NCBI GenBank assembly: GCA_963728545.1
Contig: CAVSKO010000002.1
Coordinates: 358,874-422,873 of the forward strand
From: Blastocatellia bacterium
Lineage (GTDB): Bacteria; Acidobacteriota; Blastocatellia; UBA7656
Reading direction: 5' to 3'
DNA: 64,000 bases
The notes below the pieces were generated by a model. That model saw nothing but the letters and a program-made list of their open reading frames with translations, was not told the origin of the DNA and ran no database searches. Within the stretch, counting starts at the first letter, position 1, and the number at the start of each line of letters is the position of its first letter. Shown piece by piece: positions 6,871 to 53,295 of the stretch. The position numbers and the translations under genes are program-made.

Positions 6871-8082
6871 TTAATTTTTAGACCGCTGCCGTCTCCGAGG
6901 CGCGTCATCCTGTGTGTTCGGATCGGCTTCGATCTTTATATTCATATCCGCCGCTCGGCGGTCGCGCATCAAAATCATTCCCAGCGCCCAGGTTGCCTGT
7001 TTTCGCACGTGATTATTCTCATCCTTAGTCGCCGCGCTCAAAGCTTCGACGGCGCGGTAATCGCCTTTAAGACCTAACGCCCATGCCGCCTGCGAGCGCA
7101 CATGGCCGTCGGAATCTTTCAAAGCCGCCGTCAAAGTTTCTACGGCCCGGCTATCGCCCTTGAGTCCGAGCGCCCACGCTGCTTGCGACCGCACGTGCGC
7201 GTCTTGATCTTTAAGAGCCTCCATCAAAGGCTCGACCGCCTCACGGTCCCCCTTAAGCCCCAGCGCCCATGCCGCTTGCGAGCGCACATGGCCGTCGGAG
7301 TCTTTCAAAGCAAAGGTCAGTGGTTCCACAGCACGGCTATCGCCTTTTAGCCCTAACGCCCATGCTGCTTGCGAACGAACGTGATTGTCAGAATCTTTCA
7401 AAGCTACTATCAGTGGCTCTACGGAATCTCTGTTGCCTACAAGCCCCGAGGCCCACGCCGCTTGTGAGCGCACTTGCGGTTCCGAATCTTTGAGCGCTGT
7501 AATGAGAGGCTCAACCGCTCGCGAGTCGTGCTTCAAGCCCAGGCCCCATGCGGCTTGCGCGCGAACTTGCCAGGCAGAATCGCTTATCGCAGCAATCAAC
7601 GGCTCAACCGAGCGGTCATCTTTTACCAGCCCCAGCCCGAATGCAGCGTTCTTTCGCGCATACATCTCCTGGGTCTTTAATGCCTGGATGAGCGGGTCAA
7701 CCGCAAGAGGCCCAATCCTTGAAAGGGCGATAGCAGCTTCCTTGCCCACCGTGTCATCATCGTCAAAATGCGTGCTGTTACCTCTCCCACCGCAATCAAG
7801 CACTCTTACCTTCGTCTCATCGCCAAGCAGCCGAACCAGATGCGATATTGCGGGCGCGGCCCGCTCTCGCATCTGTCCAAGCGAGCAGGCGGCAGTAGCA
7901 CGCTCGACGGCGTTGCTGGATTTCAACGCTTCGATCAGCCTGTTCAGGTCAGAAGATGAAATATTCGACTCCTGCTGAGAAAACGTCGTCGTAGTTGCGC
8001 CTGACCCTGCTACGCGAGTCTGCGCGGTTGCGCCAAAAAGGCAGCAAAAGAGCATTGCTATCATTGCCAATCTTTTCATCAT
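6871..8082 (-). CDS. secreted HEAT-repeat (PBS-lyase HEAT-like) protein
   Basis: Signal peptide MMKRLAMIAMLFCCLFGATAQ; ~8 tandem 31-aa repeats VRSQAAWALGLKGDSRAVEPLxxALKD; acidic then Arg-rich C-terminal tail. Confidence 0.75.
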   Translation of the reverse strand: MMKRLAMIAMLFCCLFGATAQTRVAGSGATTTTFSQQESNISSSDLNRLIEALKSSNAVERATAACSLGQMRERAAPAISHLVRLLGDETKVRVLDCGGRGNSTHFDDDDTVGKEAAIALSRIGPLAVDPLIQALKTQEMYARKNAAFGLGLVKDDRSVEPLIAAISDSAWQVRAQAAWGLGLKHDSRAVEPLITALKDSEPQVRSQAAWASGLVGNRDSVEPLIVALKDSDNHVRSQAAWALGLKGDSRAVEPLTFALKDSDGHVRSQAAWALGLKGDREAVEPLMEALKDQDAHVRSQAAWALGLKGDSRAVETLTAALKDSDGHVRSQAAWALGLKGDYRAVEALSAATKDENNHVRKQATWALGMILMRDRRAADMNIKIEADPNTQDDAPRRRQRSKN

Positions 8083-17931: not shown

Positions 17932-19899
17932 GTGGCTGTAATGTTGAGACTCAAAACATCTCACCGCAGAGACACAGAGAGCACAGAGGGGGCGCAGAGA
18001 AAACCAACCTCTGCTCTGCGCCCCCTCTGTGCTCTCTGTGTCTCTGCGGTGAGTCTTCTTGTAATAACCTTTTCTACGATTATCGCTGGTGCGCAGACCG
18101 CCGAAGAGTTCCGGGCGGAATTTCATCAGACGTATCCTCTCGCCGCGACAGGGCGGATCAACGTGAAGAATGTTTCGGGCGCTGTCCGCATCATCGCGTG
18201 GGACCGCAACGAGGTAAAGCTGGATGCAGTAAAGACTGCGCAGTCGAAAGAGAGTCTCGACGAAGCGGAGATCAAAGTAGAAGCCACCGCAAACGCCATT
18301 CAAATCCGTACCAGCTATCCTAATGATTGTTGCTTTTACTCGGAGGAGTGCTGCGAGAAGCGGTTTTATAGAAGCCGCGAATCCCGGCTCGCCTCGGTCG
18401 AATATAGCCTGATGGTCCCGCGAAATGCTCGCTTGGAATCCGTCGAAGTCATAAAGGGCAACGTGAAGATTGACGGCCTTTCAGGCTCTATCAATGCTTC
18501 CACGGTCATCGGCGAGGTTGACGCAAAACTTAATCGGCTCGCAGATTCTAATTCGATCACTTTAAGCTCGCTTACGGGCGGCATTCTTTTAACCATTCCT
18601 TCTGACTCGCACGCCATTGTGATCGCGCGGTCGCTTTCCAGCGAAATAACTAATGATTTCGGGCTGACGATAAATCGCGGGGAGTTCATCGGTCGCAACA
18701 TCGCGGGCCGACTCGGACGAGGCGGCGCGCGAGTGACGCTCGATAATATCACGGGCACTATCGCCGTCCGCCGCCTTTCGGACGGGCGCACGCCGAGCGC
18801 CGCGACGAACGTCAATCCTCAAACGGTGAGAGGCGAGACAGAGGCTAACCAGACTCTCGCTCGCCGCATAGTCGCGAGGGCGCGGCAACAGGCTCAACAG
18901 GCCGTCAACAATTCGGTCGATATTTCTCAAGCAATGCGCGATGTGCGGCGCGAGGTCGCTCGCGCGATGCGCGAAAGCTTGCCGATAGCCATCAGCATAG
19001 CAGTGCCGCAGATAGTCATAACTCCTGCGCCGGAAGCTAGAGTGCAGCCGCCTCGCGCTACTCGTGCGCCTCGCCCACCTCGCCCACCACGCTCGACACC
19101 ACCGGAAGCTCCGTCAACGCCGTCCCCGACGCCGACTCCAACAGCGCCTCGTGCCGAGCCGATCTATTTTAGAGTTAACGAGACGGAATCGAAATCTTTT
19201 ACCTTGAGCGGTGTCAGTCGTATCAACCTCGACACCTTCGACGGCCCGATAACGGTTCGCGCCTGGGACAAACAAGAGGTGTTGATAACGGCTACGAAAA
19301 AAGCCCGCGATGAAGAGGCGATGCGCAGTGCGCGAGTTCGGTTCGAGCAGCGCGCGGGAGAGGTCGTGGCAATTGCCCGATTCGATGATCCGGCAGGCGA
19401 GCGCGATAGCGCGGATGCCCAGGTCCATCTCGACGCATTCGTTCCGCGAAAAGCAAATCTCCGCCTCGCGACGAGCGACGGCAGGCTCTTTGTCGAAGGC
19501 GTGTCGGGCGAAATGGAACTGCGCACCGATGATGGAGAGATACGAGTAGCAAACGGGGCGGGCCGTCTGCGCGCCAACACAAGCGACGGCCAGGTTCAGG
19601 TCACGAAATTCAACGGCGACGTCGACGCTCGGACAAATGACGGGCAGATACTGTTGGAGGGACGTTTCAATTCTCTGAGCGCGCGAACGGGCGACGGAAC
19701 CATAACACTATCTCTTCCGGCAAGCTCTAACGCGACGATAGAGACTGCCGCCGAATCGATCATCATAGACGGTCTCAGAGTGACTGAAGAGGGCGATTCT
19801 GCGAGCCGGTTGAGACGTTGGAAAGTAGGCGCGGGCGGGACGGTCTTTTCGCTTCGCACAGGAGACGGGCGAATCGTGTTGCGCCGGTCGGGCGCATGA
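17932..19899 (+). CDS. two-module DUF4097 repeat protein with Pro/Thr-rich linker (start uncertain; 5' end overlaps palindromic repeat copy A)
   Basis: Two DUF4097-like repeat regions separated by PPRATRAPRPPRPPRSTPPEAPSTPSPTPTPTAPR. Confidence 0.65.
   Translation: MAVMLRLKTSHRRDTESTEGAQRKPTSALRPLCALCVSAVSLLVITFSTIIAGAQTAEEFRAEFHQTYPLAATGRINVKNVSGAVRIIAWDRNEVKLDAVKTAQSKESLDEAEIKVEATANAIQIRTSYPNDCCFYSEECCEKRFYRSRESRLASVEYSLMVPRNARLESVEVIKGNVKIDGLSGSINASTVIGEVDAKLNRLADSNSITLSSLTGGILLTIPSDSHAIVIARSLSSEITNDFGLTINRGEFIGRNIAGRLGRGGARVTLDNITGTIAVRRLSDGRTPSAATNVNPQTVRGETEANQTLARRIVARARQQAQQAVNNSVDISQAMRDVRREVARAMRESLPIAISIAVPQIVITPAPEARVQPPRATRAPRPPRPPRSTPPEAPSTPSPTPTPTAPRAEPIYFRVNETESKSFTLSGVSRINLDTFDGPITVRAWDKQEVLITATKKARDEEAMRSARVRFEQRAGEVVAIARFDDPAGERDSADAQVHLDAFVPRKANLRLATSDGRLFVEGVSGEMELRTDDGEIRVANGAGRLRANTSDGQVQVTKFNGDVDARTNDGQILLEGRFNSLSARTGDGTITLSLPASSNATIETAAESIIIDGLRVTEEGDSASRLRRWKVGAGGTVFSLRTGDGRIVLRRSGA
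17951..18060. repeat. palindromic intergenic repeat, copy A (~40-bp arms ctcaccgcagagacacagagagcacagagggggcgcagag / reverse complement, loop aaaaccaacc)
   Basis: Near-perfect inverted repeat read directly; homologous copies at ~41899..41992 and ~53182..53286. Confidence 0.8.
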
Positions 19900-27199: not shown

Positions 27200-28942
27200 A
27201 TGTCGGCTAAACTGGGCGAGACCCTTCTAAAAGATAATCTAATCACACCTCAGCAGCTCAAAGAAGCGCTCGACTTTCAGAGAGTCAACGGTGGAAGGCT
27301 CGCCTCTACCCTCGTAAGACTCGGAATGCTTTCCGATGAAGAGGTCACGGCAGTCTTGAGCCGCCAGTACGGCGTCCCTTCCGTAAACCTCGACCTTTTT
27401 GAAGTCGATCAGGCCGCAGTCGCCCTTGTGCCGCAAGAGACGGCCGAGCGTTACTCGGTGCTGCCGCTGTCTCGCGTAGGCGCGACGCTCACGCTAGCGA
27501 TGGTCGATCCCACAAACGTCTTTGCCATAGACGACATAAAATTTATGACGGGCCTTTCGGTCGAGCCTGTCGTAGTCTCTGAGACGACACTCAATGCCGC
27601 GATAAAGAAATACTACGGCACGACGCGCGAGATGGAGCTTGCGCGCGTGATGGAAGACCTGGTCGCGGAGACGACGAACAAAAACCCTTACGGCGAAGAC
27701 ATCGACCAGCTTGACATCGAAGAGCACGAAGAGGAGATCGACCTCGAAAACCTCGAAAGGATGGCCGAGGATGCGCCCGTAGTAAAACTCGTAAACGTCA
27801 TCCTCGTAGACGCGCTCCGCCGGGGGGCATCCGACATTCATATCGAGCCTTACGAAAAAGAGTTTCGCGTTCGCTTCCGCATGGACGGCGTGCTTTACAA
27901 CATAATGGCTCCGCCTCTGAAGATGCGTGACGCGCTCACGTCGCGAATGAAGATCATGGCCCGGCTCGACATAGCCGAAAAGCGGCTTCCACAAGATGGC
28001 CGCATAAAGATCAGAGTTCGGCTCGACGGGCGCTCGCGCGAGCTGGATTTCCGCGTATCAACATTGCCCACTATCTTTGGCGAAAAGATGGTGCTTCGCC
28101 TGCTTGATAAAGAGAATCTGCGGCTCGACATGACTCAGTTAGGCTTTGAGGCCGCGAGCCTGGATAAGTTCAAGCGGAACATCTCGAAGCCTTACGGGAT
28201 GGTGCTGGTCACGGGGCCGACGGGTTCCGGAAAAACGTCTACGCTTTACTCGGCGCTGCAAAGCCTGAACACGCCGGAAACGAACATAATGACTGCGGAA
28301 GACCCGGTCGAGTTCAACCTGCCCGGCATAAACCAGGTGCAGATGAAAGAATCGATAGGGCTGAATTTCGCGGCCGCGCTCCGCTCATTCTTGCGCCAGG
28401 ACCCGAACATCATTCTCGTCGGCGAAATCCGAGACTTCGAGACGGCAGAGATCGCGGTCAAAGCCGCTCTGACCGGCCACCTCGTGCTTTCCACCCTGCA
28501 CACAAACGACGCGCCTTCGACTATCAGCCGGTTGATGAACATGGGTATCGAGCCCTTTCTTGTCGCAACTTCTGTGAACTTGATCCAGGCGCAGCGACTT
28601 GTGCGAAGAATTTGTAAAGAGTGCAAAGCCGAGCACCACGCCCCGGCAGAGGCCATGATCGACGTGGGATTCCCGGCCGCCGAGGTCAAAGAGATAAAGA
28701 CGTTCAAAGGCATAGGATGTGGAAATTGTAATGGTACTGGCTACAAGGGCCGAGTCGGTCTTTATGAAGTTATGGAGATAACCGACGAGATACGCGAGTT
28801 GATTCTGGTCGGCGCGTCGGGCTTGGAGCTACGCCGCAAGGCCATTGACGAAGGTATGTTGACGCTCCGCCAGAGCGGGCTTGAGAAGATCAGGCAAGGA
28901 TTGACTACGGTAGAGGAAGTCGTGAGAGAAACAGTTAAGTGA
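27200..28942 (+). CDS. pilB: type IV pilus assembly ATPase PilB (GspE family)
   Basis: N-terminal GSPII_E_N domain, Walker A VTGPTGSGKTST, Asp/His boxes, C-terminal tetracysteine CKECK...CGNCNGTG. Confidence 0.9.
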   Translation: MSAKLGETLLKDNLITPQQLKEALDFQRVNGGRLASTLVRLGMLSDEEVTAVLSRQYGVPSVNLDLFEVDQAAVALVPQETAERYSVLPLSRVGATLTLAMVDPTNVFAIDDIKFMTGLSVEPVVVSETTLNAAIKKYYGTTREMELARVMEDLVAETTNKNPYGEDIDQLDIEEHEEEIDLENLERMAEDAPVVKLVNVILVDALRRGASDIHIEPYEKEFRVRFRMDGVLYNIMAPPLKMRDALTSRMKIMARLDIAEKRLPQDGRIKIRVRLDGRSRELDFRVSTLPTIFGEKMVLRLLDKENLRLDMTQLGFEAASLDKFKRNISKPYGMVLVTGPTGSGKTSTLYSALQSLNTPETNIMTAEDPVEFNLPGINQVQMKESIGLNFAAALRSFLRQDPNIILVGEIRDFETAEIAVKAALTGHLVLSTLHTNDAPSTISRLMNMGIEPFLVATSVNLIQAQRLVRRICKECKAEHHAPAEAMIDVGFPAAEVKEIKTFKGIGCGNCNGTGYKGRVGLYEVMEITDEIRELILVGASGLELRRKAIDEGMLTLRQSGLEKIRQGLTTVEEVVRETVK

Positions 28943-29036
28943 TTTTAGATTTTTGATTTTGGATTAAGGATTGCGCGCCGACCCATCAGAGCTTCGGTCC
29001 CACAATACAAAATCTAGAATCCAAAATCTAAAATCG
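28941..29036 (+). terminator. AT-rich imperfect hairpin between pilB and pilT (gattttagatttt... / ...aaaatctaaaatc), GC-rich loop
   Basis: 13-bp perfect + extended imperfect stem read directly. Confidence 0.4.
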
Positions 29037-29047
29037 CCGGAGGTTAT

Positions 29048-30217
29048 ATGCGAGAGATTGCACTGAGCGATTTGTTGAGGAAGATGATAGAGCTTGGCGG
29101 GTCCGACCTGCACATAACGACGAACTCCGCGCCTATGGTGCGCGTTCACGGTGTGCTGAGGCCGCTTGAGTATCAGGAGATGACGCCGGCAGAGACGAAA
29201 CAGCTTGCCTATTCAGTCTTGACCGACGCGCAGAAGCACAGGTTTGAAGAGACTCTGGAGCTGGATTTCTCATTCGGTATCAAGGGGCTGTCACGCTTCC
29301 GCGCGAACATCTACAACCAGCGCGGCGCGGTCGGCGCGGTCTTCCGTTCAATCCCTTACGAGATACGCTCTTTTGAGGAGCTTGGGCTGCCGGGCGTAAT
29401 CAATAAGCTTTGCGATAAGCCGCGCGGGCTTATACTCGTCACGGGGCCTACCGGGTCGGGCAAATCAACTACGCTTGCCGCGATGCTAGACAAAGTTAAT
29501 CGTGATCGCCACGAGCACATAATCACGGTCGAAGACCCGATAGAATATCTGCACGCGCACAAGGGCTGTATAGTCAACCAGCGAGAGGTCCACTCTGACA
29601 CGCACTCATTCGCCAACGCGCTCAGGGCCGCTCTTCGCCAGGACCCGGACGTGGTGCTCATAGGCGAAATGCGCGACCTTGAGACGACAGAGACCGCGCT
29701 CAGAATAGCCGAGACGGGCCACTTGACTTTTGCCACTCTGCACACGAATTCGGCGGCGTCATCGATCAACCGTATCATAGACATTTTCCCGGCTCACCAG
29801 CAGTCGCAGATTCGCACGCAGCTTTCGATGGTGCTGGAAGGAATCGTCACGCAGGCGCTGCTTCCGAAGGCTAACGGGCAGGGGCGCGCTATGGCTATGG
29901 AGATACTTGTGCCGAACGCGGCTATTCGCAACCTAGTCCGCGAAGACAAGATTCACCAGATTTACTCTATGATGCAGACGGGTCAGGAAAAATACGGGAT
30001 GCAGACCTTCAACCAATCGCTTGTGAGTCTCTACTTCAAGAAGCAGATCACGCTTGAGATGGCTATGGCTCGCTCATCAAACGCGGACGAGTTACAGGAT
30101 TTGATAAATCGCGGGACGGCGGCGATGCAGGGTGCAACTCCTCCTGGCGTCAGACAGCCGGGCTATCCCGCGCAACCCAACCGGCCCATGAATCCGTTAG
30201 GCCGCGTGGGACGGTAA
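29048..30217 (+). CDS. pilT: twitching motility ATPase PilT
   Basis: Walker A VTGPTGSGKSTT; PilT signature AxxHLTFATLHTNSAAxSINRIIDIFP; 389 aa with short C-terminal extension. Confidence 0.9.
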   Translation: MREIALSDLLRKMIELGGSDLHITTNSAPMVRVHGVLRPLEYQEMTPAETKQLAYSVLTDAQKHRFEETLELDFSFGIKGLSRFRANIYNQRGAVGAVFRSIPYEIRSFEELGLPGVINKLCDKPRGLILVTGPTGSGKSTTLAAMLDKVNRDRHEHIITVEDPIEYLHAHKGCIVNQREVHSDTHSFANALRAALRQDPDVVLIGEMRDLETTETALRIAETGHLTFATLHTNSAASSINRIIDIFPAHQQSQIRTQLSMVLEGIVTQALLPKANGQGRAMAMEILVPNAAIRNLVREDKIHQIYSMMQTGQEKYGMQTFNQSLVSLYFKKQITLEMAMARSSNADELQDLINRGTAAMQGATPPGVRQPGYPAQPNRPMNPLGRVGR

Positions 30218-30221
30218 AAGC

Positions 30222-30362
30222 AAAGGATGAAGTATGAGGGATGAAGGATGAAAAAGAAACAAGCCTCGGTTCTGAAATCTGAGATTTGCGATTTTAAATC
30301 CGCGCCGCGCGCAAGCGCATCATGCGCCATATTCATCCTTCATCCCTCATACTTCATCCTTT
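30222..30362. repeat. 31-bp perfect inverted repeat (aaaggatgaagtatgagggatgaaggatgaa) flanking a 79-nt spacer, directly 3' of pilT
   Basis: Arms 30222..30252 and 30332..30362 are exact reverse complements. Confidence 0.8.
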
Positions 30363-30416: not shown

Positions 30417-31643
30417 ATGCCTACTTATGTTTTCAAAGGCCGCAACCGAATGAACGAGATGGTTGTAGGCGAGCGCGTGGCTGCCGACCGCGCGGCGCTC
30501 GAAGCCATGCTCCGGCGCGAGCAAGTCATCTTGACCAGCGCGCGCGAGAAGGGACGCGAGATCAGTCTGCCCAAGGTTGGGCGCGAGAAGGTCAAGAGCA
30601 AAGACCTGGCGCTGTTCACACGCCAGTTTTCGGTCATGCTCGACGCAGGACTGCCGCTCGTGCAATGTCTTGAGATACTGGGTCAGCAACAGGATAACAA
30701 GTTCTTTCAAAAGGTTATCTTTCAAACACGCGCAGACGTTGAAGCCGGTATGACGCTTGCGGATGCGATGGCTAAACACCCGCGCGTGTTCGAACCGCTC
30801 TACACCAACATGGTTGCGGCGGGCGAAACCGGCGGTATTTTAGACATCATCTTGCAGCGACTGTCAACCTATCTTGAGAAGATGGTCAAGCTCAAGAGCG
30901 ACGTGAAGAGCGCGCTGATCTACCCGATAGCGGTTATCGTGATTTCGATCATAGTCATCTCGATCATCATGATAGTCGTCATCCCCGCCTTCAAGAACAT
31001 CTTTGAAGGACTGCTGGGGCCGGGCGAGAAGCTGCCGTGGTTGACCGAGCTTGTAGTCTCGATATCGCAATTCCTGGCCGGGTTCTGGTGGCTGATAGCA
31101 ATCTTTGTCGGCGTTATGGTCTTTGCGGCGAAAGCCTGGTACAAGACCGACAGCGGGCATCACATGATCGACAGCCTTCAGTTGAAACTGCCGATCTTTG
31201 GGCCTATCCTAAAAAAGATAGCGATAGCGCGGTTCAGCCGAACACTCTCGACCTTGCTCAGCTCAGGCGTGCCCATTCTGGAATCGCTTGAGATAACTGC
31301 AAAGACGGCGGGCAATATCGTAGTCGGCGAAGCGATCCTTAAAGTCCGCACCGGTATCGAGCAGGGCCAGACGTTTGTCGAGCCGTTGAAAGCCAGCCAG
31401 ATCTTTCCAGTGATGGTAAGCCAGATGATAGGGGTCGGCGAGCAGACGGGCGCTTTAGACGCCATGCTTTCAAAGATTGCCGACTTCTACGAGCAGGAAG
31501 TTGATGCCGCGATTGCAAACTTGCTGAGCCTGATGGAACCAGCTATGATTCTGTTCCTCGGCGTCACAATCGGTACTATAGTTATCGCGATGTATCTGCC
31601 ACTGTTCACGCTCATCGGCAAACTGGCAGGCGGCGGAAAATAG
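30417..31643 (+). CDS. pilC: type IV pilus platform protein PilC (GspF family)
   Basis: Two GspF repeats, three TM segments, 408 aa. Confidence 0.9.
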   Translation: MPTYVFKGRNRMNEMVVGERVAADRAALEAMLRREQVILTSAREKGREISLPKVGREKVKSKDLALFTRQFSVMLDAGLPLVQCLEILGQQQDNKFFQKVIFQTRADVEAGMTLADAMAKHPRVFEPLYTNMVAAGETGGILDIILQRLSTYLEKMVKLKSDVKSALIYPIAVIVISIIVISIIMIVVIPAFKNIFEGLLGPGEKLPWLTELVVSISQFLAGFWWLIAIFVGVMVFAAKAWYKTDSGHHMIDSLQLKLPIFGPILKKIAIARFSRTLSTLLSSGVPILESLEITAKTAGNIVVGEAILKVRTGIEQGQTFVEPLKASQIFPVMVSQMIGVGEQTGALDAMLSKIADFYEQEVDAAIANLLSLMEPAMILFLGVTIGTIVIAMYLPLFTLIGKLAGGGK

Positions 31644-31741: not shown

Positions 31742-33472
31742 ATGCGTAGAAAGCTTCAATGGTTGTTGGTCTCGCGCCTGGCCTTGGCGGTTGGACTGCT
31801 TGCGGCTGTGGCACTCTTTGAGCGAGATGACGCCAAGCGTTCGTTTATACCCGTCCTCTCGATGCTCGCGGGCGCGGTAGTGGTGTTGTCGGCTTTCTAT
31901 TTCATCGCGCAGCGCACTTCGTCCCGGCTCAAGTTACAGGGGTACATCCAGCTTTCAATCGACCTCGCGCTCGTCACCTGGCTCGTCTATTTGACGGGCG
32001 ATGTCGAGTCGGCCTTCCTTGCGCTATATCTGGTAATTATCTTTGCCGCAAGCACACTATTTGGTAGGCCAGGCGTCCCTCTGCTCGGAGCTTCTGCGGC
32101 TGTGATGTACGCAGTGACGGGCGTACTGGCGATGAGCGGGCTGGCCCCGCGCGCCGACGGGTGGGCGCCTTACGATCTAAAGAGCCTGCCCTGGGCAGAG
32201 TTCATGTTCTCGCTGAACCTTACAGCCATCTTTGCTATCGCGGCGCTGTCGAGCCATCTGGCAGAGCGGATTCACCGCAGCGAATCCGAACTGGCTACGG
32301 CCACATCAGAGCTTGCAACCGCTACGAAAGAGTTGGCCGATAATCGCCTTGTTAACGACCGTATCATAGAGAGCATGCGAAGCGGCCTTGTGACGACCGA
32401 CCTGCGCGGCAATATTCTAACGTTCAACCGCGCCGCCGAAGAGATAACAGGTTACAAAGCGCAGGACGTTAAGGGCGACAATATCTCTTCGATTTTCGGG
32501 GACATTGACAAACAGATTGAAGTCGGGTTGGAATCGATCCGCACGCGGTCACGCTTGCCGCGATTTGATATCGGGTGCAAGACAGCAGACGGGCGCGACC
32601 TGCACCTGGGCTTTTCTGTCGCGCCGCTGGTTGACGAAGCGCCGGAACTGCAAACAAATGCAAACGGCTTCCCGTTTCGCGGTTACGTCTTGACCTTTCA
32701 AGACCTGACCGAAGTGATGGAGTTGGAGCGCGAAGTTCGCCGCCAGGAGCGGCTCGCTGCGCTCGGCAAGATGGCTGCGGGGCTTGCGCACGAGATTCGA
32801 AACCCGCTCGCATCCATGCGCGGGTCTGTCCAGGTGCTCGCAAGCGAGCTGAGCCTTTCGCGCGACCAATCTCAGTTGATGGAGATAGTCCTGCGCGAAT
32901 CTGACAGGCTGAATCGAATCGTTTCGGACTTTCTCACTTATGCCAGGCCGCCTCGGATCGAGCGAACGGTCATCGAACTGTCCAGCATCTTGTCAGAGAC
33001 CGTGGCCTTGCTCCGCAACAGCCCCGAGCTGACACCCGATCATCAGGTGGCGGAGGATTTTCCCGCCGAGCCTGTTCACTATAACGGCGACCCGAACCAG
33101 ATTCGACAGATCTTCTGGAACCTCGCTCGCAACGCCATACAAGCGATGCCGAGCGGCGGAGAGCTGCGCGTGACGCTTGAAGCCGCCCGCGGGCGCGAAG
33201 TGACTATAACCTTTAGCGACACGGGTCAGGGCATGAGCCGGGAGCAGAAGGAGAGAATGTTCGAGCCGTTCAACTCTTCGAGCGGCGGGACGGGCCTTGG
33301 GATGGCGATAGTTTATCAACTTGTTCGGGACCACAACGGAAAGATAGACGTTGAAAGCGAAGCCGGAAACGGCACTCGTATCTCGATAAAGCTTCCGGGC
33401 AGCGGGCGGGTCAAACGCGAGTTTGACTCCCCGGTTCCAGAGACATCGGAAGCAATAGTAACCCGCGTTTGA
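31742..33472 (+). CDS. pilS: sensor histidine kinase PilS-like (multi-TM, PAS, HisKA, HATPase_c)
   Basis: N-terminal 6 TM; PAS; H-box AAGLAHEIRNPL; N/G1/G2 boxes; paired with NtrC-type regulator upstream of sigma-54-driven pilins. Confidence 0.75.
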   Translation: MRRKLQWLLVSRLALAVGLLAAVALFERDDAKRSFIPVLSMLAGAVVVLSAFYFIAQRTSSRLKLQGYIQLSIDLALVTWLVYLTGDVESAFLALYLVIIFAASTLFGRPGVPLLGASAAVMYAVTGVLAMSGLAPRADGWAPYDLKSLPWAEFMFSLNLTAIFAIAALSSHLAERIHRSESELATATSELATATKELADNRLVNDRIIESMRSGLVTTDLRGNILTFNRAAEEITGYKAQDVKGDNISSIFGDIDKQIEVGLESIRTRSRLPRFDIGCKTADGRDLHLGFSVAPLVDEAPELQTNANGFPFRGYVLTFQDLTEVMELEREVRRQERLAALGKMAAGLAHEIRNPLASMRGSVQVLASELSLSRDQSQLMEIVLRESDRLNRIVSDFLTYARPPRIERTVIELSSILSETVALLRNSPELTPDHQVAEDFPAEPVHYNGDPNQIRQIFWNLARNAIQAMPSGGELRVTLEAARGREVTITFSDTGQGMSREQKERMFEPFNSSSGGTGLGMAIVYQLVRDHNGKIDVESEAGNGTRISIKLPGSGRVKREFDSPVPETSEAIVTRV

Positions 33473-33487: not shown

Positions 33488-34978
33488 GTGATGGAGAAGA
33501 TACTGGTTGTAGATGACGAGCGCAGCATGCGCGAATTGCTTGAACTCGTTTTAAAGCGCGAGGGTTACGCCGTTCACACGGCAGAGAATGGGACCCGCGC
33601 ACTTGAGTTCGTGCGCCAGAATGTTTATGACCTTCTCATTTCGGATGTAAAGATGCCCGACATCAACGGCATCGAGCTTCTTGAGCGCGTCCGCGAAATC
33701 TCGCCCGAAACAATGGTCATAATGATAACCGCATTCGCCACCGTGGACACGGCTCGCCGCGCGTTCAAGCTTGGCGCTGAAGATTTCGTAATTAAAGATT
33801 CGGGCTTCGATGTCGAAGAGTTGAAAGTGACGGTTGGCAAGGTGCTTGAGAAGAAACACCTGCGCCAGGAAAACGTGCTTTTGAAACGTGAGCTTCGCCA
33901 GCGCAACTCGCTCGACAACATCATAGGCCGATCACCACAGATGCAGGCCGTCTACCAGATGATCGAGACCGTCGCCGCTACGACTTCGACCGTGCTTATA
34001 ACCGGCGAGTCGGGGACCGGCAAAGAGCTTGTCGCGCGCGCTATTCACAGTATGTCAAACCGCGCGGGCGCTCCGTTTGTGTCTATCAACTGCGGCGCAT
34101 TCACGGAAACGCTTTTGGAGTCCGAGCTGTTCGGCTATATGAAGGGATCGTTTACGGGCGCGGTATCTAACCGCAAGGGGCTGTTTGAGGCAGCCGAAGG
34201 GGGAACGATCTTTCTCGACGAGATAGGTGAGACGACGCCTGCCATGCAGGTCAAGATGCTCCGCGTGCTTCAGGAGCGAAGCATTCGCCGCGTCGGCGGC
34301 ATTGAAGAGATTCCCGTAGACGTTCGGGTCATCGCCGCTACCAACCGTGATCTTGCGCAGATGGTTGAAGACGGCACATTCCGCAACGACCTGTTTTATC
34401 GTATCAGCGTGATTCCTATCGAAATGCCACCGTTGCGGTCTCGTCGCGCAGACATACCTGACCTTGTGCGCCACTTTCTTGAAAAGTACAGCGCGGCTGC
34501 CGGTCGGCCCACGCTTGAGATTTCCGAAGAGGCAATGCGTTATCTTGAGTCGTATGACTGGCCGGGCAATGTTCGAGAGCTTGAGAACACTATCGAACGG
34601 GCCGTCGCGCTTGAGCCTGGTCGCATCGCGGGAGTAGACCGCCAAAGAGTCGAATCAGGCCCGCTCGCAGGATTGCCGGACCGCCGTCTCAAGCCTGAGT
34701 GGTTGCCTGAGCGAATATTGAAATACAAGCCCAGGAACATTACAGACATCGATTTACCGGAAGACGGGTTGGATTTGGAAGCCTATCTGTCTCAGCTCGA
34801 AAAGGACTACATTATCCGCGCGCTGCAACGCACGGGCGGCAACCAGACTCGCGCCGCAGAGATACTGAATATGTCGGTCCGCAGTCTTCGTCATCTTCTG
34901 GACAAACATAAGATTCGCCAGACGGCGAGCCTTCTGCGCGAGTCTACGGCTGTCGGCGACAGCGCGGCGAATAAATGA
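33488..34978 (+). CDS. pilR: sigma-54-dependent response regulator PilR-like (NtrC family)
   Basis: Receiver domain (DDE...D...K), AAA+ sigma-54 interaction domain GESGTGKE / GAFTGA-like, C-terminal Fis-type HTH. Confidence 0.8.
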
Positions 34979-35228
34979 TCGCATAGACCGGCAATCTATT
35001 GTCGGCATAACGGCCAAGACTCTTTCAAGCAACGTTCTCTGGACGAGACTGCGCCTCTGCCTATAACACCGCCTTCTGTTTCACCCCCACTACAGGATGC
35101 ATTCGAAATATAATTTTGAATGCGATCCCTGAACAGGGGATCATTACATCCTTTTGCTCACACTATAAACCCGCAACATTCATACGGCGCTCGAAACGAG
35201 TTAGTAAAAGCTGACCGACCTGCTGAGA

Positions 35229-35244
35229 TGGCATAACCCTTGCT
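35229..35244 (+). promoter_or_regulatory. sigma-54 promoter (TGGCAT-N5-TTGCT; GG/GC at -24/-12 spacing) upstream of pilin 1
   Basis: Exact -24 GG / -12 GC geometry, 57 nt upstream of ATG. Confidence 0.6.
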
Positions 35245-35300
35245 GATCATTACAATGGTTTTCGAACAAGCAGGGCGATTTTATGTTCAAGGAGATGGTT

Positions 35301-35726
35301 ATGAAAAGTGAGCGTGGCTTTTCGTTGATAGAGCTTTTAGTAGTAGTCGGCATTCTTATGATAATTTCGGCGATAGCTATACCGGGGCTTCGCAAAGCAA
35401 GGAATAATGCTAACTCAGGATCGGCGATACAATCGCTCAGAACGCTTACGACAGCCGAACACTTATACGAGAGAAGGTTCCATCAATACGCCACGTTAGC
35501 CCAACTTGTGCCCGAAGGCACGATTGATACTCATCTCGGAACAGGATTGAAGAGCGGTTACAGTTTCACGCTGACTCTGAGCGCAGGAAACCAGAATTTT
35601 TCCTGCACAGCAACGCCACTTGATGATCCTCCTAACATGCCCCATTACTTTGTCGATCAGACCGGCGTCATCCGTTACAACGACGGTGCGCCTGCCAATG
35701 CATCAAGCTCTCCGATACCGAGGTAG
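35301..35726 (+). CDS. type IV pilin (prepilin, N-terminal GFSLIELLVV methylation motif)
   Basis: Leader MKSERG|FSLIELL, Glu+5; RBS aaggag 6 nt upstream; track start 35283 is 6 codons earlier. Confidence 0.8.
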   Translation: MKSERGFSLIELLVVVGILMIISAIAIPGLRKARNNANSGSAIQSLRTLTTAEHLYERRFHQYATLAQLVPEGTIDTHLGTGLKSGYSFTLTLSAGNQNFSCTATPLDDPPNMPHYFVDQTGVIRYNDGAPANASSSPIPR

Positions 35727-35871
35727 GACCATCCGTTTCTGACAAAAAGTGGTAATGATTTCTAACGCAATTTGTTAGGAAAAGTCTATGAAAAGAGCGC
35801 CTCGAATCCAGGATTCTAGAAAGCTTGTTTGCTCACAACAGTTTCCTGCGACCATTCCGATTTAGAACACA

Positions 35872-35887
35872 TGGCACAAGCGTTGCC
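35872..35887 (+). promoter_or_regulatory. sigma-54 promoter (TGGCAC-N5-TTGCC) upstream of pilin 2
   Basis: Consensus -24/-12 elements ~90 nt upstream of ATG 35978. Confidence 0.6.
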
Positions 35888-35977
35888 GTTATCAAGCTTG
35901 AGATTAAAGTTAGTTTGGCCGCTGAGGACAACATTGCCTACGGCGAGACAAAAGAAAAAAGGAGCAAAAGGAGCATT

Positions 35978-36463
35978 ATGAAGAAAGAGAACGGATTTTC
36001 ACTGATAGAGCTGCTGATAGTGGTAGCCATCATAGGCATCATCGCCGCTATCGCAATCCCGAATTTGCTTAAGTCCCGACAGGCGGCCAACGAGTCGTCA
36101 GCCATTGGATCGGTTCGCACGTTGGGTACGGCGCAAGCAACTTACCAATCTACTCGCGGTCGAGGTAAAGACTTCGCGGTCTCTCTGGCTGCAATGAACA
36201 CGGAAGGCTTGATCGACTCAGCGTTGTCGAGCGGTGCCAAGAGCGGCTTCGCGTTCACGTGCGTAGGCGTGGCAGCGACTGCAACAGCACCGTCGTACTT
36301 TGACAGCTCGGCTCAGCCGCAATCGTCCGGTACGTTCGGAACAGGCAACAGGTCATTCTATTCGAACGAGACGTTTGTGATATATGCATTGGATGGCGGT
36401 ACAGCGCCGACAGCGGCATTCCCGGTGAGGGTGCCTGCTGCACCTGCCTTACCGATTGAATAG
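35978..36463 (+). CDS. pilA: type IV pilin, tandem duplicate copy 1 (161 aa; track ORF 35825 over-extended)
   Basis: MKKENG|FSLIELLIVVAIIGIIAAIAIPNLL; RBS aaggag; differs from copy 2 at 5 of 161 residues. Confidence 0.8.
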   Translation: MKKENGFSLIELLIVVAIIGIIAAIAIPNLLKSRQAANESSAIGSVRTLGTAQATYQSTRGRGKDFAVSLAAMNTEGLIDSALSSGAKSGFAFTCVGVAATATAPSYFDSSAQPQSSGTFGTGNRSFYSNETFVIYALDGGTAPTAAFPVRVPAAPALPIE

Positions 36464-36490
36464 AACCTCTATCAATCTGGTTGAGTGTGA

Positions 36491-36531
36491 AACGGGCGAG
36501 CCGCCAAAAAGGCTTGCCCGTTCTTTTTTTT
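36491..36531 (+). terminator. Rho-independent terminator after pilin 2 (stem aacgggcgagcc/ggcttgcccgtt + T8)
   Basis: GC stem followed by ttcttttttttattt. Confidence 0.8.
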
Positions 36532-36685
36532 ATTTAAAGAAATTTATGTGTCTCAATTGAAATTGAACAAAAAATGGCATTCATCACTTAACGAAATTTG
36601 GGAATGATAACCTGCCGCCAACTGTTTTCAAAAAGCTTTTCTTTAAGAGACACCAGTTAAAACAAGAGCGACTTTCTATTTCGCG

Positions 36686-36701
36686 TGGCACAGCCTTTGC
36701 C
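36686..36701 (+). promoter_or_regulatory. sigma-54 promoter (TGGCAC-N5-TTGCC) upstream of pilin 3
   Basis: Consensus -24/-12 ~90 nt upstream of ATG 36792. Confidence 0.6.
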
Positions 36702-36791
36702 AATGCTAGTAACGCGATCTGTCGTAGTTCGGCCGCTAGGGACAAAACGACCTACGGCGAGACAAAAGAAAAAAGGAGCAAAAGGAGCATT

Positions 36792-37277
36792 ATGAAGAAA
36801 GAGAACGGATTTTCACTGATAGAGCTGCTGATAGTGGTAGCCATCATAGGCATCATCGCCGCTATCGCAATCCCGAATTTGCTTAAGTCCCGACAGGCGG
36901 CCAACGAGTCGTCAGCCATTGGATCGGTTCGCACGTTGGGTACGGCGCAAGCAACTTACCAATCTACTCGCGGTCGAGGTAAAGACTTCGCGGTCTCTCT
37001 GGCTGCAATGAACACGGAAGGCTTGATCAACTCAGCGTTGTCGAGCGGCAACAAGAGCGGTTTCACATTCACGTGCGTAGGCGTGGCGGCGACTGCAACA
37101 GCACCGTCATACTTTGATGCCTCAGCGCGTCCGCAATCGTCCGGAACATTTGGAACAGGCAACAGGTCATTCTATTCGAACGAGACGTTTGTGATATATG
37201 CATTGGATGGCGGTACAGCGCCGACAGCGGCATTCCCGGTGAGGGTGCCTGCTGCACCTGCCTTACCGATTGAATAA
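36792..37277 (+). CDS. pilA: type IV pilin, tandem duplicate copy 2 (161 aa)
   Basis: Identical to copy 1 except D/N, A/N, A/T, S/A, Q/R in the central region; identical 45 nt upstream incl. RBS. Confidence 0.8.
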   Translation: MKKENGFSLIELLIVVAIIGIIAAIAIPNLLKSRQAANESSAIGSVRTLGTAQATYQSTRGRGKDFAVSLAAMNTEGLINSALSSGNKSGFTFTCVGVAATATAPSYFDASARPQSSGTFGTGNRSFYSNETFVIYALDGGTAPTAAFPVRVPAAPALPIE

Positions 37278-37307
37278 GTCGGATTATCAATAGATCAACT
37301 GATCATA

Positions 37308-37350
37308 AAACGGGTGAGCCTTTCCGAGGCTCACCCGTTTGTGTTATAGT
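37308..37350 (+). terminator. stem-loop terminator after pilin 3 (aaacgggtgagcc / ggctcacccgttt)
   Basis: 13-bp perfect stem, followed by T-rich tract. Confidence 0.65.
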
Positions 37351-37469
37351 TTCTTCATCAGCTCATAAATTATGCGGAACCGTTCAGGGTCGCCCGCGTT
37401 CGACTTTGTAAGAGAGCACAAAGCTTTACCCTATTCGGGGAAGCTCAATCTGGAGCTGAGGAGAGTACT

Positions 37470-37952
37470 ATGAAGAAGAGACAAGAGCGAGGTTTTTCGC
37501 TTATCGAGTTGCTTATCGTGGTTGCCATTATCGGTATTATCGCCGCACTCGCAATTCCCAGCTTGTTGAAATCTCAACAGGCAGCTCGCGAGACGGCTGC
37601 AATCGGTGAAGTCTCGGCTATTGGCAAAGCGCAAGTGACTTACCAGATGACAAAGGGTCGCGGGAAATTCGGGACGCTTGCACAGCTTGGTGAAGACGGC
37701 GGGCTTAATGCCGCGTTAGCATCCGGCACAAAGAGCGGTTATCTTTACACTTCTGATCCTGTCGTTGTCGAGGGATTGCCCGGGATGTACGACACGACTG
37801 CGAAACCCAGTTCAACGGGGAAATTCGGAACGGGCAATATTTCCTATTACTCTAATGAGTCTAATACTATTTACGAAGCAGAAGGCGGGACGCCGCCTAC
37901 GTGCACTCCGCAAGACCGCATTCCAAAAGACGGTCAGATCATAACAAGGTAA
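37470..37952 (+). CDS. type IV pilin, divergent paralog (160 aa)
   Basis: MKKRQERG|FSLIELLIVVAIIGIIAALAIPSLL; RBS gaggag. Confidence 0.8.
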   Translation: MKKRQERGFSLIELLIVVAIIGIIAALAIPSLLKSQQAARETAAIGEVSAIGKAQVTYQMTKGRGKFGTLAQLGEDGGLNAALASGTKSGYLYTSDPVVVEGLPGMYDTTAKPSSTGKFGTGNISYYSNESNTIYEAEGGTPPTCTPQDRIPKDGQIITR

Positions 37953-37962
37953 GCAGAATTTA

Positions 37963-38001
37963 ATGGGCCGGGGAGCGCTCTCGGAGTTTGCCCCGGCCCA
38001 T
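37963..38001 (+). terminator. stem-loop after pilin 4 (tgggccgggg / ccccggccca)
   Basis: 10-bp GC stem; no clear T-run. Confidence 0.45.
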
Positions 38002-38116
38002 CAACTCTTGATCGAGTTGCTGAAGTATTGAAAGCGTGAGATCGAAAACTCGCGCTCAGTCCCTTGCCCCTGCGAGCAGTCCCGCCCCCGCCAGGAAAAG
38101 TTTCTTATAAATCATC

Positions 38117-40078
38117 TTGAAATCTACACGCACGAAAACCACAGGCAAACACGCGCGCGCGCGCGAAGCCTCAGCCAACGCGCACGATAAAGATTCATTC
38201 TCACTCGTAGAGCAACTGAGCGCGGGCCGCGTAATAATGCTCATTTGTCTCGTCGCGTTTCTGGCTTATGCGAACTCTCTCGGCGGGGATTTTGTCTTTG
38301 ACGACAACGAGCAGATAGTCGAAAACCAGAATCTGCGTTCCTGGGATAACATCACGCGCGGGTTTACCACTCACGTGTGGGCTTTTCGCGAGCAAGGCGA
38401 AACTACGAACGTCCCCGCGCCACTGCCGTACTACAGGCCGCTCTTTACTCTGATGCTGACGGTCGAGTATCAGCTATTCGGGTTGCAGCCGCAGTGGTGG
38501 CATCTTGTGAGCCTGATTCTTCATATCATCTGTGCGGTCGAAATCTTTTATATCATTCTGGTATTATCGCGCCGAAAACTGGTTGCCTTAATCGCCTCGT
38601 TACTGTTTGCTGTCCACCCTGTCCACGCAGAATCTGTAAGCTGGATCAGCGGGATGACCGATCCGTTGTTTGGCGTATTCTTCCTCGCGTCGTTTTACTT
38701 TTATCTCAAGCATCGTGACGGTCATCCACCCGCAGCCCCATCGGGGAAAGAGAAGGCGTCCGCGTCGTCGGAGAAAAGAAGGTATCTTGTGTGGTCGCTT
38801 CTGTTTTTCATCGTCGCGGCTTTCGCTAAAGAAACAGCCCTCAGCCTCGTTATTTTGATATTCGGCTACGAAGCGGTCATCTCAAATGGCAAGATGAGCG
38901 CTCGCTTGATAGAAGCTGCAAAGCGCGCGTTGCCTTTTGTCGCGGCGGCTTTGGTTTACCTGATCCCGCGATATCTGGTTCTCGGTGAAATGATGTGGAG
39001 CAATCCTCAAGCTCCGGATCGGCCTTTCTCTCACACGCTTTTTACGCTGCCTTTTGTGATTTGCAGTTACTTGCTGCACCTCGTATGGCCCGTCGGCCTG
39101 AGCGTCACTTATGACACGAGGTTTATAACTTCAGCGGCGTCTCCAACATTCTTCTTGCTCGCCATTATTCTCGCCGTCATCACAGGCTTACTGATCTATT
39201 TTCGCGCTCGTATCAGCAAACAAGTATGGCTGGCGTTGTTGATGATTATTGTCCCGCTATTACCTGTGCTTAAACTCGGACAGGTTTCGCAAGAGCAGTA
39301 CCTGGTCTTTGATCATTACCTGTATATCTCTGTTGCAGGGTTGGGTTATCTGGCGGGGCTTGGGTTGTTTAGGCTTTCGCAGTCGAGGACCGAAAAATTG
39401 AGCCTTGCGGCGGCGGCATTGTTAGTGGTCGCGCTTGCAGCCGGGACGCATTTTGAGAATAAGGCGTGGGCCAATTCTTATGCGGTCTGGTCGAATGCCG
39501 CGCGCGTGAGCCCGAATTATTGGGCGCCTCAATACAACACCGCGCTAGAGTTGATTAAGCTCAAGCAATACGACAGCGCGCGCGCGATGCTTGAGCGAGC
39601 GAGTGCGCTCAAGCCTGACGAGCCGACAATCTATGACGCGCTAGGCCGCGCTCATCTTGGCATGAGTGATCTCGAAGCTGCCGAAGCGAGTATCAAGCGC
39701 GCGCTTGAGATCAACCCTCAGATGGTAGAATCGCTCAATAATCTCGGCACTGTTTATTTTGAGGCGAAAGATTATGAGAAGGCCGAAAAGTATTTTACCG
39801 AAGCGTTGCGTGTAAACCCGAAAGCGACGGCAGTGCAGTACAATCTGGCTCGCTGCTACTCTCGCTTGGGCCGGGACAATGACGCCGTGAGGGAATTTGA
39901 ACAGTTCTTAAAATCGTCGCCCAATGATGCCGAAGCCCTTTATGAGCTTGGAGAGGTCTATAAAAAAAGAGGGCGGCGCGATGACGCTATTCGCTCTTTC
40001 GAGCGCGCGCTTGATTTGACAAAATCACAAGAACTGAAGGAAAAGATTTCAAACAGTTTAAGCGGCTTAAAACGATAG
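38117..40078 (+). CDS. TMTC/PMT-like GT-C-fold glycosyltransferase (DUF1736-type multi-TM domain) with C-terminal TPR repeats
   Basis: First-loop acidic motif VFDDNEQIV; YRPLFTLMLTVEY and WWHLVSLILHI motifs typical of TMTC/PMT_2 family; >=10 TM; 5-6 TPR repeats at C-terminus. Confidence 0.6.
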   Translation: MKSTRTKTTGKHARAREASANAHDKDSFSLVEQLSAGRVIMLICLVAFLAYANSLGGDFVFDDNEQIVENQNLRSWDNITRGFTTHVWAFREQGETTNVPAPLPYYRPLFTLMLTVEYQLFGLQPQWWHLVSLILHIICAVEIFYIILVLSRRKLVALIASLLFAVHPVHAESVSWISGMTDPLFGVFFLASFYFYLKHRDGHPPAAPSGKEKASASSEKRRYLVWSLLFFIVAAFAKETALSLVILIFGYEAVISNGKMSARLIEAAKRALPFVAAALVYLIPRYLVLGEMMWSNPQAPDRPFSHTLFTLPFVICSYLLHLVWPVGLSVTYDTRFITSAASPTFFLLAIILAVITGLLIYFRARISKQVWLALLMIIVPLLPVLKLGQVSQEQYLVFDHYLYISVAGLGYLAGLGLFRLSQSRTEKLSLAAAALLVVALAAGTHFENKAWANSYAVWSNAARVSPNYWAPQYNTALELIKLKQYDSARAMLERASALKPDEPTIYDALGRAHLGMSDLEAAEASIKRALEINPQMVESLNNLGTVYFEAKDYEKAEKYFTEALRVNPKATAVQYNLARCYSRLGRDNDAVREFEQFLKSSPNDAEALYELGEVYKKRGRRDDAIRSFERALDLTKSQELKEKISNSLSGLKR

Positions 40079-41898: not shown

Positions 41899-41992
41899 TC
41901 AAAACATCTCACCGCCGCAGAGGCGCAGAGCAGATGTTGGTTTTCTCTGCGCCCCCTCTGTGTTCTCTGTGTCTGCGGCGGTGAATCTTTTT
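41899..41992. repeat. palindromic intergenic repeat, copy C (deletion variant)
   Basis: catctcaccgccgcagaggcgcagag...ctctgcgccccctctgtgttctctgtgtctgcggcggtgaatctt; between convergent genes. Confidence 0.75.
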
Positions 41993-42004
41993 CCGAAAAT
42001 TGTT

Positions 42005-53181: not shown

Positions 53182-53286
53182 GATACATCTCACCGCCGCA
53201 GAGACACAGAGGGGGCGCAGAGAAAACCATATTCTGCTCTGCGCCCGCTCTGTGTTCTCTGTGTCTCTGCGGTGAATCTTCTTGTT
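53182..53286. repeat. palindromic intergenic repeat, copy D
   Basis: catctcaccgccgcagagacacagagggggcgcagag aaaaccatat tctgctctgcgcccgctctgtgttctctgtgtctctgcggtgaatctt; between convergent genes. Confidence 0.8.
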
Positions 53287-53295
53287 TTAATATCG

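Follow-up and report, generated by a model that had tools for sequence, protein, structure and literature searches.

A 64-kb stretch of DNA from a soil Blastocatellia bacterium (contig CAVSKO010000002.1, positions 358,874–422,873 of the forward strand), referred to here as the window, has four type IV pilin genes in a row at the 3′ end of its type IV pilus gene cluster. The two middle genes, termed copy 2 and copy 3, are most readily interpreted as an old tandem duplicate pair whose ends appear to have been homogenized repeatedly by gene conversion around an unconverted core. A probability of about 0.8 is assigned to this interpretation. Positions within a pilin gene are counted from the A of the ATG as nucleotide +1. 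The four genes are:

35301–35726, forward strand: pilin 1, 141 aa, first member of a pilin triad conserved across Blastocatellia
35978–36463, forward strand: pilin copy 2, 161 aa, with the family-typical core residues D80/A87/A92/Q113
36792–37277, forward strand: pilin copy 3, 161 aa, with the core allele N87/T92/A110/R113 plus N80
37470–37952, forward strand: pilin 4, 160 aa, third member of the conserved triad

All four open reading frames (ORFs) are complete, carry the motif M..G|FSLIELL and score above the cut-offs of PF07963 (E 9e-8 to 1e-9) and TIGR02532; each combines the prepilin signal-peptide motif with a hydrophobic N-terminal helix. The original prediction of four pilin genes in a row is borne out by these matches. 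Pilin 4 is 54–55% identical to copies 2 and 3, and the closest protein relatives are all from metagenome-assembled genomes (MAGs) of Blastocatellia (Acidobacteriota).

Copies 2 and 3 are the near-identical tandem pair that was predicted, with five of 161 residues different (D80N, A87N, A92T, S110A and Q113R). The identity had been described as running from about 45 nt upstream of the ATG to the stop codon, broken only by five central substitutions. This is correct for the protein, and the ribosome-binding site does lie within the identical stretch, but exact identity starts at −41 and the DNA shows 20 differences, 19 of them within nucleotides 238–360 and the last in the stop codon (TAG vs TAA). 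More than half of the 19 core changes are synonymous. There are no differences at all in the flanking tracts, and the gene can be divided as follows:

35937–36214, forward strand: putative 5′ conversion tract of copy 2 (−41 to +237, 278 nt), 100% identical to 36751–37028
36215–36337, forward strand: apparently unconverted core of copy 2 (nt 238–360, codons 80–120), with 19 differences from 37029–37151
36338–36462, forward strand: putative 3′ conversion tract of copy 2 (nt 361–485, 125 nt), 100% identical to 37152–37276

The clustering of differences is far beyond chance, both by a range test (p ~6e-11) and by a codon-level permutation of the longest identical codon run (p = 3e-4). The pair is a mosaic, in which identical tracts end at sharp borders against a diverged background, and this is the pattern looked for in gene conversion.

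The background shows the age of the duplication. The repeat unit is 814 bp in length and extends from about 240 nt upstream of the ATG through the terminator; it contains an upstream region, a sigma-54 promoter, a leader, the coding sequence and the terminator. Identity between the two copies outside the converted tracts is low:

−108 to −42, promoter and 5′ leader: 66%
−250 to −109, upstream region: 70%, with indels
75 nt after the stop codon: 72%, with indels

The sigma-54 promoter regions had indeed been described as homologous but much more diverged than the genes. Within the core there are about 11.5 synonymous and 7.5 non-synonymous differences, which give a synonymous divergence (dS) of 0.50, a non-synonymous divergence (dN) of 0.087 and a dN/dS of 0.18. 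Because the non-coding parts of the unit are this far apart, with indels, and core dS is so high, the duplication is old and not young.

Related lineages provide the second line of evidence. Contigs were reached via members of the same 90% protein clusters and fall into three lineages, B, C and D. Spacer 2-3, which is the duplication junction, is present in all three, and the coding ends in these junction-bearing lineages differ from those of the window by 3–13%. Since the junction is common to all of them, the duplication predates the split of the window lineage from lineages B–D. In lineage B, the k=127 contig L052 starts and ends with the same 127 nt and so closes into a loop; its cycle of 812 nt, compared with a period of 814 in the window, is made up of spacer 2-3, a gene and spacer 2-3. 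Four further lineage-B contigs from four samples (L056–L059) have spacer 2-3, a gene, spacer 3-4 and pilin 4. Lineage C is represented by L060 (tail of pilin 1, spacer 1-2, gene, spacer 2-3) and L053 (spacer 2-3, gene, spacer 3-4, start of pilin 4), which overlap in spacer 2-3 at 94% identity. Lineage D consists of one 10.8-kb contig, L055, which opens with the final 104 nt of an upstream copy and runs on through spacer 2-3, a further copy and pilin 4 into the same genes as in the window.

At their ends the genes cluster by lineage. The two window copies match exactly, the two lineage-B sequences have B-specific bases in common at positions 171, 174, 189, 369, 378, 384 and 423, and the two L055 copies agree with each other over the last 104 nt while sharing six differences from the window. 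In a rate-controlled test over nt 171–237 and 361–450, the window and lineage B differ at 12 sites and the two window copies at none. For both gene ends, paralogues within a genome are therefore closer than positional orthologues, which is the hallmark of concerted evolution. The cores, compared between the window and lineage B, cluster by position, with nine differences between the copies 3, 15 between the copies 2, and 19–24 in cross-position pairs. These comparisons demonstrate concerted evolution of the gene ends, as judged from sequence, and give direct support to the ongoing gene conversion that had been proposed. In lineage C the core looks homogenized as well: L060 and L053 have 12 differences there, and lineage-specific residues and a C-terminal indel are common to both, although these contigs come from different samples.

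It should be pointed out that several observations weigh against this interpretation. Only L055 has both copies on one molecule, and the other comparison lineages consist of short metagenome contigs. The L052 loop could represent a collapsed copy or a third, middle copy. If reads were mis-mapped during polishing, the ends of the window copies may be less perfectly identical than they look. In addition, core dS between positional counterparts of the window and lineage B is 0.585 for copy 2 and 0.255 for copy 3, compared with 0.10 for pilin 4 and about 0.1 for the gene ends, and simple escape of the core from conversion does not explain values this high. They hint at more than two core alleles, at extra copies (a third in lineage B) or at recombination between strains; a third middle copy in lineage B would fit the loop contig.

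Selection on the two genes can be assessed from the same comparisons. Copy 2 of the window and its lineage-B counterpart diverge with a dN/dS of 0.05, and the corresponding value for copy 3 is 0.08; both copies are therefore under purifying selection and are kept as working genes. Core dN/dS between positional counterparts is 0.04–0.09. No sign of diversifying selection was found at the protein level, as dN/dS in the core and between lineages is well below 1, and the diversifying change in an exposed loop that was originally proposed finds no support. The allele N87/T92/A110/R113 of copy 3 is also present in the position-3 genes of the sister population, lineage B, and is therefore old. D80N occurs in the window only, and residue 80 is D in 120 of the 120 closest homologues. 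When the changes are polarised with L052 and L053, the copy-3 side has changed at all five sites, and site 110 has changed in copy 2 as well.

An AlphaFold (AF2) model of the pilin, built from 53 sequences (pLDDT 86), predicts a helix at residues 9–59, short helices at 70–75 and 81–84, and strands at 91–98, 107–114, 125–130 and 135–139. In the model the core covers the last part of the alpha-beta loop, strands beta1 and beta2, and the loop that follows each strand. The five variable residues belong to the globular head, where they occupy the final part of the alpha-beta loop, beta1 and beta2. Residues 1–79, which include the assembly helix, are identical in both copies. A Foldseek search of the model against the PDB gave no significant match, the best being the minor pilin PilE of P. 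aeruginosa (E 0.38), and membership in the type IV pilins is thus based on the sequence motifs; sequence matches to PDB entries cover the N-terminal helix only.

The following sequence of events can be envisaged. The middle pilin gene of a conserved three-pilin array would have been tandemly duplicated long ago as an 814-bp unit. RecA-type, non-reciprocal gene conversion between the direct repeats would then repeatedly copy the ends of one gene onto the other, beginning in the identical ends and halting at the diverged core. The 123-nt core may stay unconverted because its divergence of about 15% blocks heteroduplex extension through mismatch-dependent rejection, or perhaps because variants with a homogenized core are selected against. 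Each copy would be transcribed from its own PilR/sigma-54 promoter, translated from the same ribosome-binding site and ended at its own terminator; as both are intact and have all three signals, both should be made. Both should also enter the same pilus, built by one machinery, since the N-terminal 79 residues with the assembly helix are identical. The likely outcome is either a larger supply of subunit or a mixed filament built from two pilins that are distinguished by five residues of the head. The recombination mechanism, the expression of both genes and their co-assembly are here deduced from sequence features. Dosage amplification of the major pilin, which was part of the original prediction, is plausible, as is a mixed pilus; the former gains from the fact that other Blastocatellia keep near-identical tandem copies at low dN/dS.

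The pilin array is present in about 40 Blastocatellia loci and consists of pilin 1 (~141 aa), pilin 2 (159–169 aa) and a pilin-4 homologue (158–164 aa). Among about 40 species-level genomes, at least five have a duplicated middle gene, namely that of the window and four other MAGs:

L007, 6001–7300: tandem middle-pilin pair, 99% protein identity, period 799 nt
L008, 6001–7141: tandem middle-pilin pair, 96% protein identity, period 658 nt
L009, 1144–2283: tandem middle-pilin pair, 98% protein identity, period 642 nt
L016, 6001–7408: tandem middle-pilin pair, 85% protein identity

The pairs of L007–L009 have dS of 0.15–0.40 and dN/dS of 0.05–0.06. Their near-identity at the protein level is largely attributable to purifying selection, and signs of conversion tracts are weak; this pattern agrees with a benefit from having two copies of one subunit. 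In L008 the sigma-54 promoter of the second copy appears to be deleted, and in L009 the spacer carries an inverted piece of the leader. The different periods (799, 658 and 642 compared with 814) and spacer layouts favour repeated, independent duplications over one ancient event shared by these loci, L016 and the window. Duplication may be commoner than the count of five indicates. Many short-read MAG contigs end in or beside the middle pilin gene (L005, L011, L012, L019, L028, L032, L034, L038–L040, L043 and L046), as would be expected if near-identical tandem copies break or collapse the assemblies.

Of the other readings, the one with most to commend it is that the core is held apart by selection, with two or more old head variants of the main pilin kept side by side. 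This is a possibility, though a rather doubtful one. If it were true, conversion would keep the assembly-critical ends interchangeable and the variants would provide a mixed or switchable pilus surface, for instance against pilus-specific phages or predators; the deep core dS would then represent long-lived balanced alleles shuffled among strains by recombination.

A second reading has the two genes fully homogenized first, and a patch of about 120 nt imported afterwards from a diverged strain or paralogue by transformation and homologous recombination. Type IV pili commonly mediate DNA uptake, and the excess of core dS between counterparts (0.585 and 0.255 against a background of 0.10) fits old alleles that move between genomes. 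However, the same two core types occupy the same two positions in lineage B, so that an import would have had to take place before the split or else twice, and among the homologues retrieved no donor-like sequence is closer than the lineage-B copy-3 allele. Import is thus considered unlikely.

It must also be asked whether the assembler or polisher expanded one copy into two or homogenized two more diverged copies. Near-identical repeats of 0.5 kb are a classic source of assembly errors, and the related MAG contigs that break at the middle pilin gene show the difficulty. Nevertheless, the copies differ in their upstream and downstream spacers, each of which has orthologues in independent datasets, and the 19 core differences are paralogue-specific in another population. 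Moreover, the 812-nt cycle could arise in the independent k=127 assembly only if the copies were exactly identical over at least 127 nt, and four other Blastocatellia MAGs have similar tandem pairs. An artefact would therefore be most surprising.

Equally little speaks for a very recent re-duplication of the coding part followed by positive selection on five surface residues, i.e. incipient antigenic variation. The location of all five replacements in the globular head, the changes on the copy-3 side at every one of these sites and the loss of an otherwise invariant D80 would fit such a history. It is contradicted by the 11.5 synonymous differences in the core (dS 0.50, dN/dS 0.18), by the presence of four of the five copy-3 states (N87, T92, A110 and R113) in the position-3 gene of the sister population, and by a divergence of about 30% in the non-coding parts of the unit. 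With 66–72% identity there, indels, and a junction shared with lineages that differ by 3–13%, the recent duplication that had been suggested as an alternative to conversion finds no support.

Last, a programmed phase- or antigenic-variation device of the Neisseria pilE/pilS cassette or Moraxella tfpQ/tfpI invertible type is hardly credible: the conserved-variable-conserved layout and the recombination between copies give a superficial likeness, but the window has only four full-length pilin genes and no truncated cassettes, the repeats are direct and not flanked by inverted repeats of 30 nt or more, no recombinase family was recognized among the ORFs scanned (part of those in the window), both copies have full promoters, and dN/dS is well below 1. 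The suggestion of antigenic or phase variation is not upheld.

Several known systems can be compared. Neisseria pilE/pilS is the classic case of gene conversion among pilin sequences, in which promoterless, 5′-truncated silent cassettes donate to one expression locus. It has in common with the window non-reciprocal recombination between pilin sequences, with conserved segments around variable ones. In the window, however, both partners are complete genes with promoters, and a tblastn search of the window with copy 2 matched only the four full-length genes, with no silent cassettes. Conversion here would homogenize two genes rather than diversify one, and the excess of amino-acid changes typical of the variable segments of Neisseria was not found in the core, between the copies or between positional counterparts (dN/dS 0.18 and 0.04–0.09). 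The tfpQ/tfpI system of Moraxella has an invertible segment, flanking inverted repeats and a site-specific recombinase. By contrast, the repeats of the window are direct, no inverted repeat of 30 nt or more is present at 35000–38000, and no recombinase was found among the neighbouring ORFs scanned. Concerted evolution of bacterial duplicates is known from tufA and tufB of Salmonella. As there, the window paralogues are closer within a genome than orthologues are between genomes and tract borders are sharp, and RecA-dependence is presumed. They differ from tufA/tufB in that the repeats are tandem and not dispersed, and a discrete internal segment is left unconverted in at least two lineages.

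The pilins follow directly on the genes for the pilus machinery and its regulators, in the order pilB-pilT-pilC-pilS-pilR:

27200–28942, forward strand: pilB (TIGR02538, 798 bits)
29048–30217, forward strand: pilT (TIGR01420, 502 bits)
30417–31643, forward strand: pilC, T2SSF/PilC protein
31742–33472, forward strand: pilS-like sensor kinase (PF25323 6TM_PilS, PAS, HisKA, HATPase_c)
33488–34978, forward strand: pilR-like sigma-54-dependent response regulator (Response_reg, Sigma54_activat, HTH_8)
38117–40078: membrane protein with C-terminal TPR repeats, the first gene 3′ of the pilins

The assembly genes for PilB, PilT and PilC thus adjoin the pilins; no prepilin peptidase gene was found in the window. 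The product of 38117–40078 joins about 430 residues without a Pfam match to the TPR repeats, and L055 has a 653-aa TPR protein in the same place 3′ of the pilins. The window protein may act in pilin modification or in pilus biogenesis. An ABC-2 permease and then another TPR protein lie beyond. Long inverted repeats are present in the pilB-pilT (28941–29035) and pilT-pilC (30222–30362) intergenic regions; complementarity is 82% over the 33-nt arms of one and 100% over the 31-nt arms of the other, which are separated by a 79-nt spacer, and both repeats are made of short GGATGAA- or GATTTT-like units.

The order pilB-pilT-pilC-pilS-pilR-pilin(s), then ABC-2 permease, resembles that of the Myxococcus xanthus pil cluster, and profile matches to NF041775 and NF052606 also support a Myxococcus-like cluster. 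The best curated pilin model is NF041775 (myxobacterial PilA) and the best solved relative is M. xanthus PilA (8TJ2), both by way of the N-terminal helix only. In contrast, the globular domain belongs to a Blastocatellia-specific sequence family, with an NF041775 score of 59 against a cut-off of 400.

To our knowledge, identity within the pilin pairs of Legionella, Streptococcus sanguinis and Thermus is well below 97%. The abstracts on Legionella pneumophila PilA1/PilA2, which are related pilins of one locus (PMC13170364), and S. sanguinis PilA1-3 (PMC11121087) describe related pilins served by a single assembly machinery, and that on Thermus thermophilus PilA4/PilA5 describes two pilus types built by a single machinery (PMC7203116). 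The likeness to the window is in several related pilins with one machinery and, in some of these species, more than one gene for a major subunit; in contrast to the window, no conversion mosaic for these pairs was found in the abstracts. Several transcribed pilA homologues are reported per myxobacterial genome (PMC3776727). Stigmatella aurantiaca has pilA Sa1-4, which include the consecutively numbered STAUR_6449 and STAUR_6450 (PMC3776727), but that work reports no near-identical tandem pair or conversion mosaic.

The predicted promoters of the array differ between pilins 1–3 and pilin 4. Perfect sigma-54 −24/−12 elements (TGGCAY-N5-TTGC) occur three times in the 64 kb, where 0.28 would be expected by chance, and all three precede pilins:

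35229–35243, forward strand: predicted sigma-54 promoter of pilin 1, TGGCATAACCCTTGC, exact motif match
35872–35886, forward strand: predicted sigma-54 promoter of pilin copy 2, exact motif match
36686–36700, forward strand: predicted sigma-54 promoter of pilin copy 3, exact motif match

An element is found at a similar distance upstream of pilin 1 in most orthologous loci. The 64-kb scan found no such element upstream of pilin 4. Control of pilA by PilSR is an established paradigm. With predicted elements before pilins 1–3 and a PilR-like gene nearby, that regulator is presumed to be the activator of the three promoters, a link drawn because the genes adjoin and because of the paradigm.

Further signals lie in the leaders and terminators of the middle genes:

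35913–35961: middle-pilin leader, divergent form (copy 2)
36727–36775: middle-pilin leader, canonical form (copy 3)
36491–36532, forward strand: predicted intrinsic terminator of copy 2, a 12-bp stem followed by a T run, from a terminator scan
37310–37338, forward strand: terminator-like hairpin after copy 3, read from the sequence and homologous to the copy-2 terminator

The leader of the middle pilin, from the sigma-54 promoter to the ribosome-binding site, is conserved nearly base for base (GCRATCTGTCGTAGATTGGCCGCTAGGRA..GACCTACGGCAA) in about 35 Blastocatellia loci. That of copy 2 has a divergent 5′ half, which is kept in lineage C (L060). Copy 3 thus combines the family-typical 5′ leader with the unusual N80, and copy 2 the typical D80 with the divergent leader. 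A 7-bp candidate helix in the leader shows no covariation, and two short candidate hairpins show limited covariation; the conserved sequence may be either an RNA element or a protein-binding site. One stem pair that is G-U in the copy-2 terminator is A-U in the copy-3 hairpin, whose stem is thus fully Watson–Crick. The copy-3 hairpin is not listed by the terminator scan because its T run is broken, and its tail overlaps the conserved TGnTATAGT motif described below.

Pilin 4 has signals of its own:

37342–37350, forward strand: extended −10-like element TGTTATAGT, with TG-TAT--T positions invariant in 33 of 33 orthologous loci
37353–37469, forward strand: conserved, apparently structured leader of pilin 4, ~120 nt, from predicted folds and covariation

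TGTTATAGT, which has the form TGnTATAGT, is situated directly 3′ of the copy-3 terminator hairpin and is a putative sigma-70 promoter of pilin 4. When the leaders are folded one sequence at a time, most orthologues adopt a common layout: a predicted helix, P1, joins the 5′ end to GAGCUGAGGAG at the ribosome-binding site, and two hairpins and a conserved unpaired stretch, GCGUUCGAUUUCGCAAGAGAGCAC, lie inside it. RNAalifold on a plain MAFFT alignment of the leaders returned three pairs only. The structure is proposed from the single-sequence folds because the variable hairpins are misaligned in that alignment. In a sequence-only alignment, 72% of cells pair, compared with 31–49% when the partners are slid. 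A covariance model matches each of 35 loci exactly once, and every match precedes the pilin-4 homologue (e.g. L029 5582–5700 and L022 6573–6693). When the alignment is fitted to the model, pairing in the outer helix reaches 84% and six of its ten pairs show compensatory changes; the covariation score is 0.22, compared with 0.146 in shuffled controls (0 of 500 reached it) and at most 0.116 in slid ones, in an alignment that is itself fitted to the structure. A search of 34900–38200 against Rfam 15 gave only chance-level matches (E 0.098 or higher), far below gathering scores. These results make the pilin-4 leader a credible candidate for a pilin-gene cis-regulatory RNA not described before.

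Repeats are found elsewhere in the window as well. An intergenic palindromic element of about 86 nt is present in three copies (17960–18067, 41913–41998 and 53204–53290); its arms are 40 nt and 100% complementary at 17960–18053, and in appearance it resembles a repetitive extragenic palindromic (REP) sequence or a miniature inverted-repeat transposable element (MITE). Two neighbouring paralogue pairs, 20225–22708/22940–25411 and 47590–49047/49668–51317, have DNA segments that are 71–83% identical, and a CBM9/DUF5916 protein of ~825 aa belongs to the first pair. The ORFs at 6871–8082 and 8124–10172 contain a 93-nt tandem repeat array.

The middle pilin pair is an unusually clean natural example of concerted evolution, with borders that are sharp to the base and four related lineages that can be compared, and it concerns a surface-filament family in a poorly studied soil phylum. 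As concerted evolution it is nonetheless ordinary, and the understanding of pili or of gene conversion is unchanged by it. For annotation and assembly, it offers an explanation for the frequent breaks of MAG contigs at the middle pilin gene. A fixed three-pilin array downstream of pilSR is common to Blastocatellia, and within it the conserved pilin-4 leader may prove more rewarding to follow than the duplicate pair, as it is a candidate for a new pilin-gene regulatory RNA.

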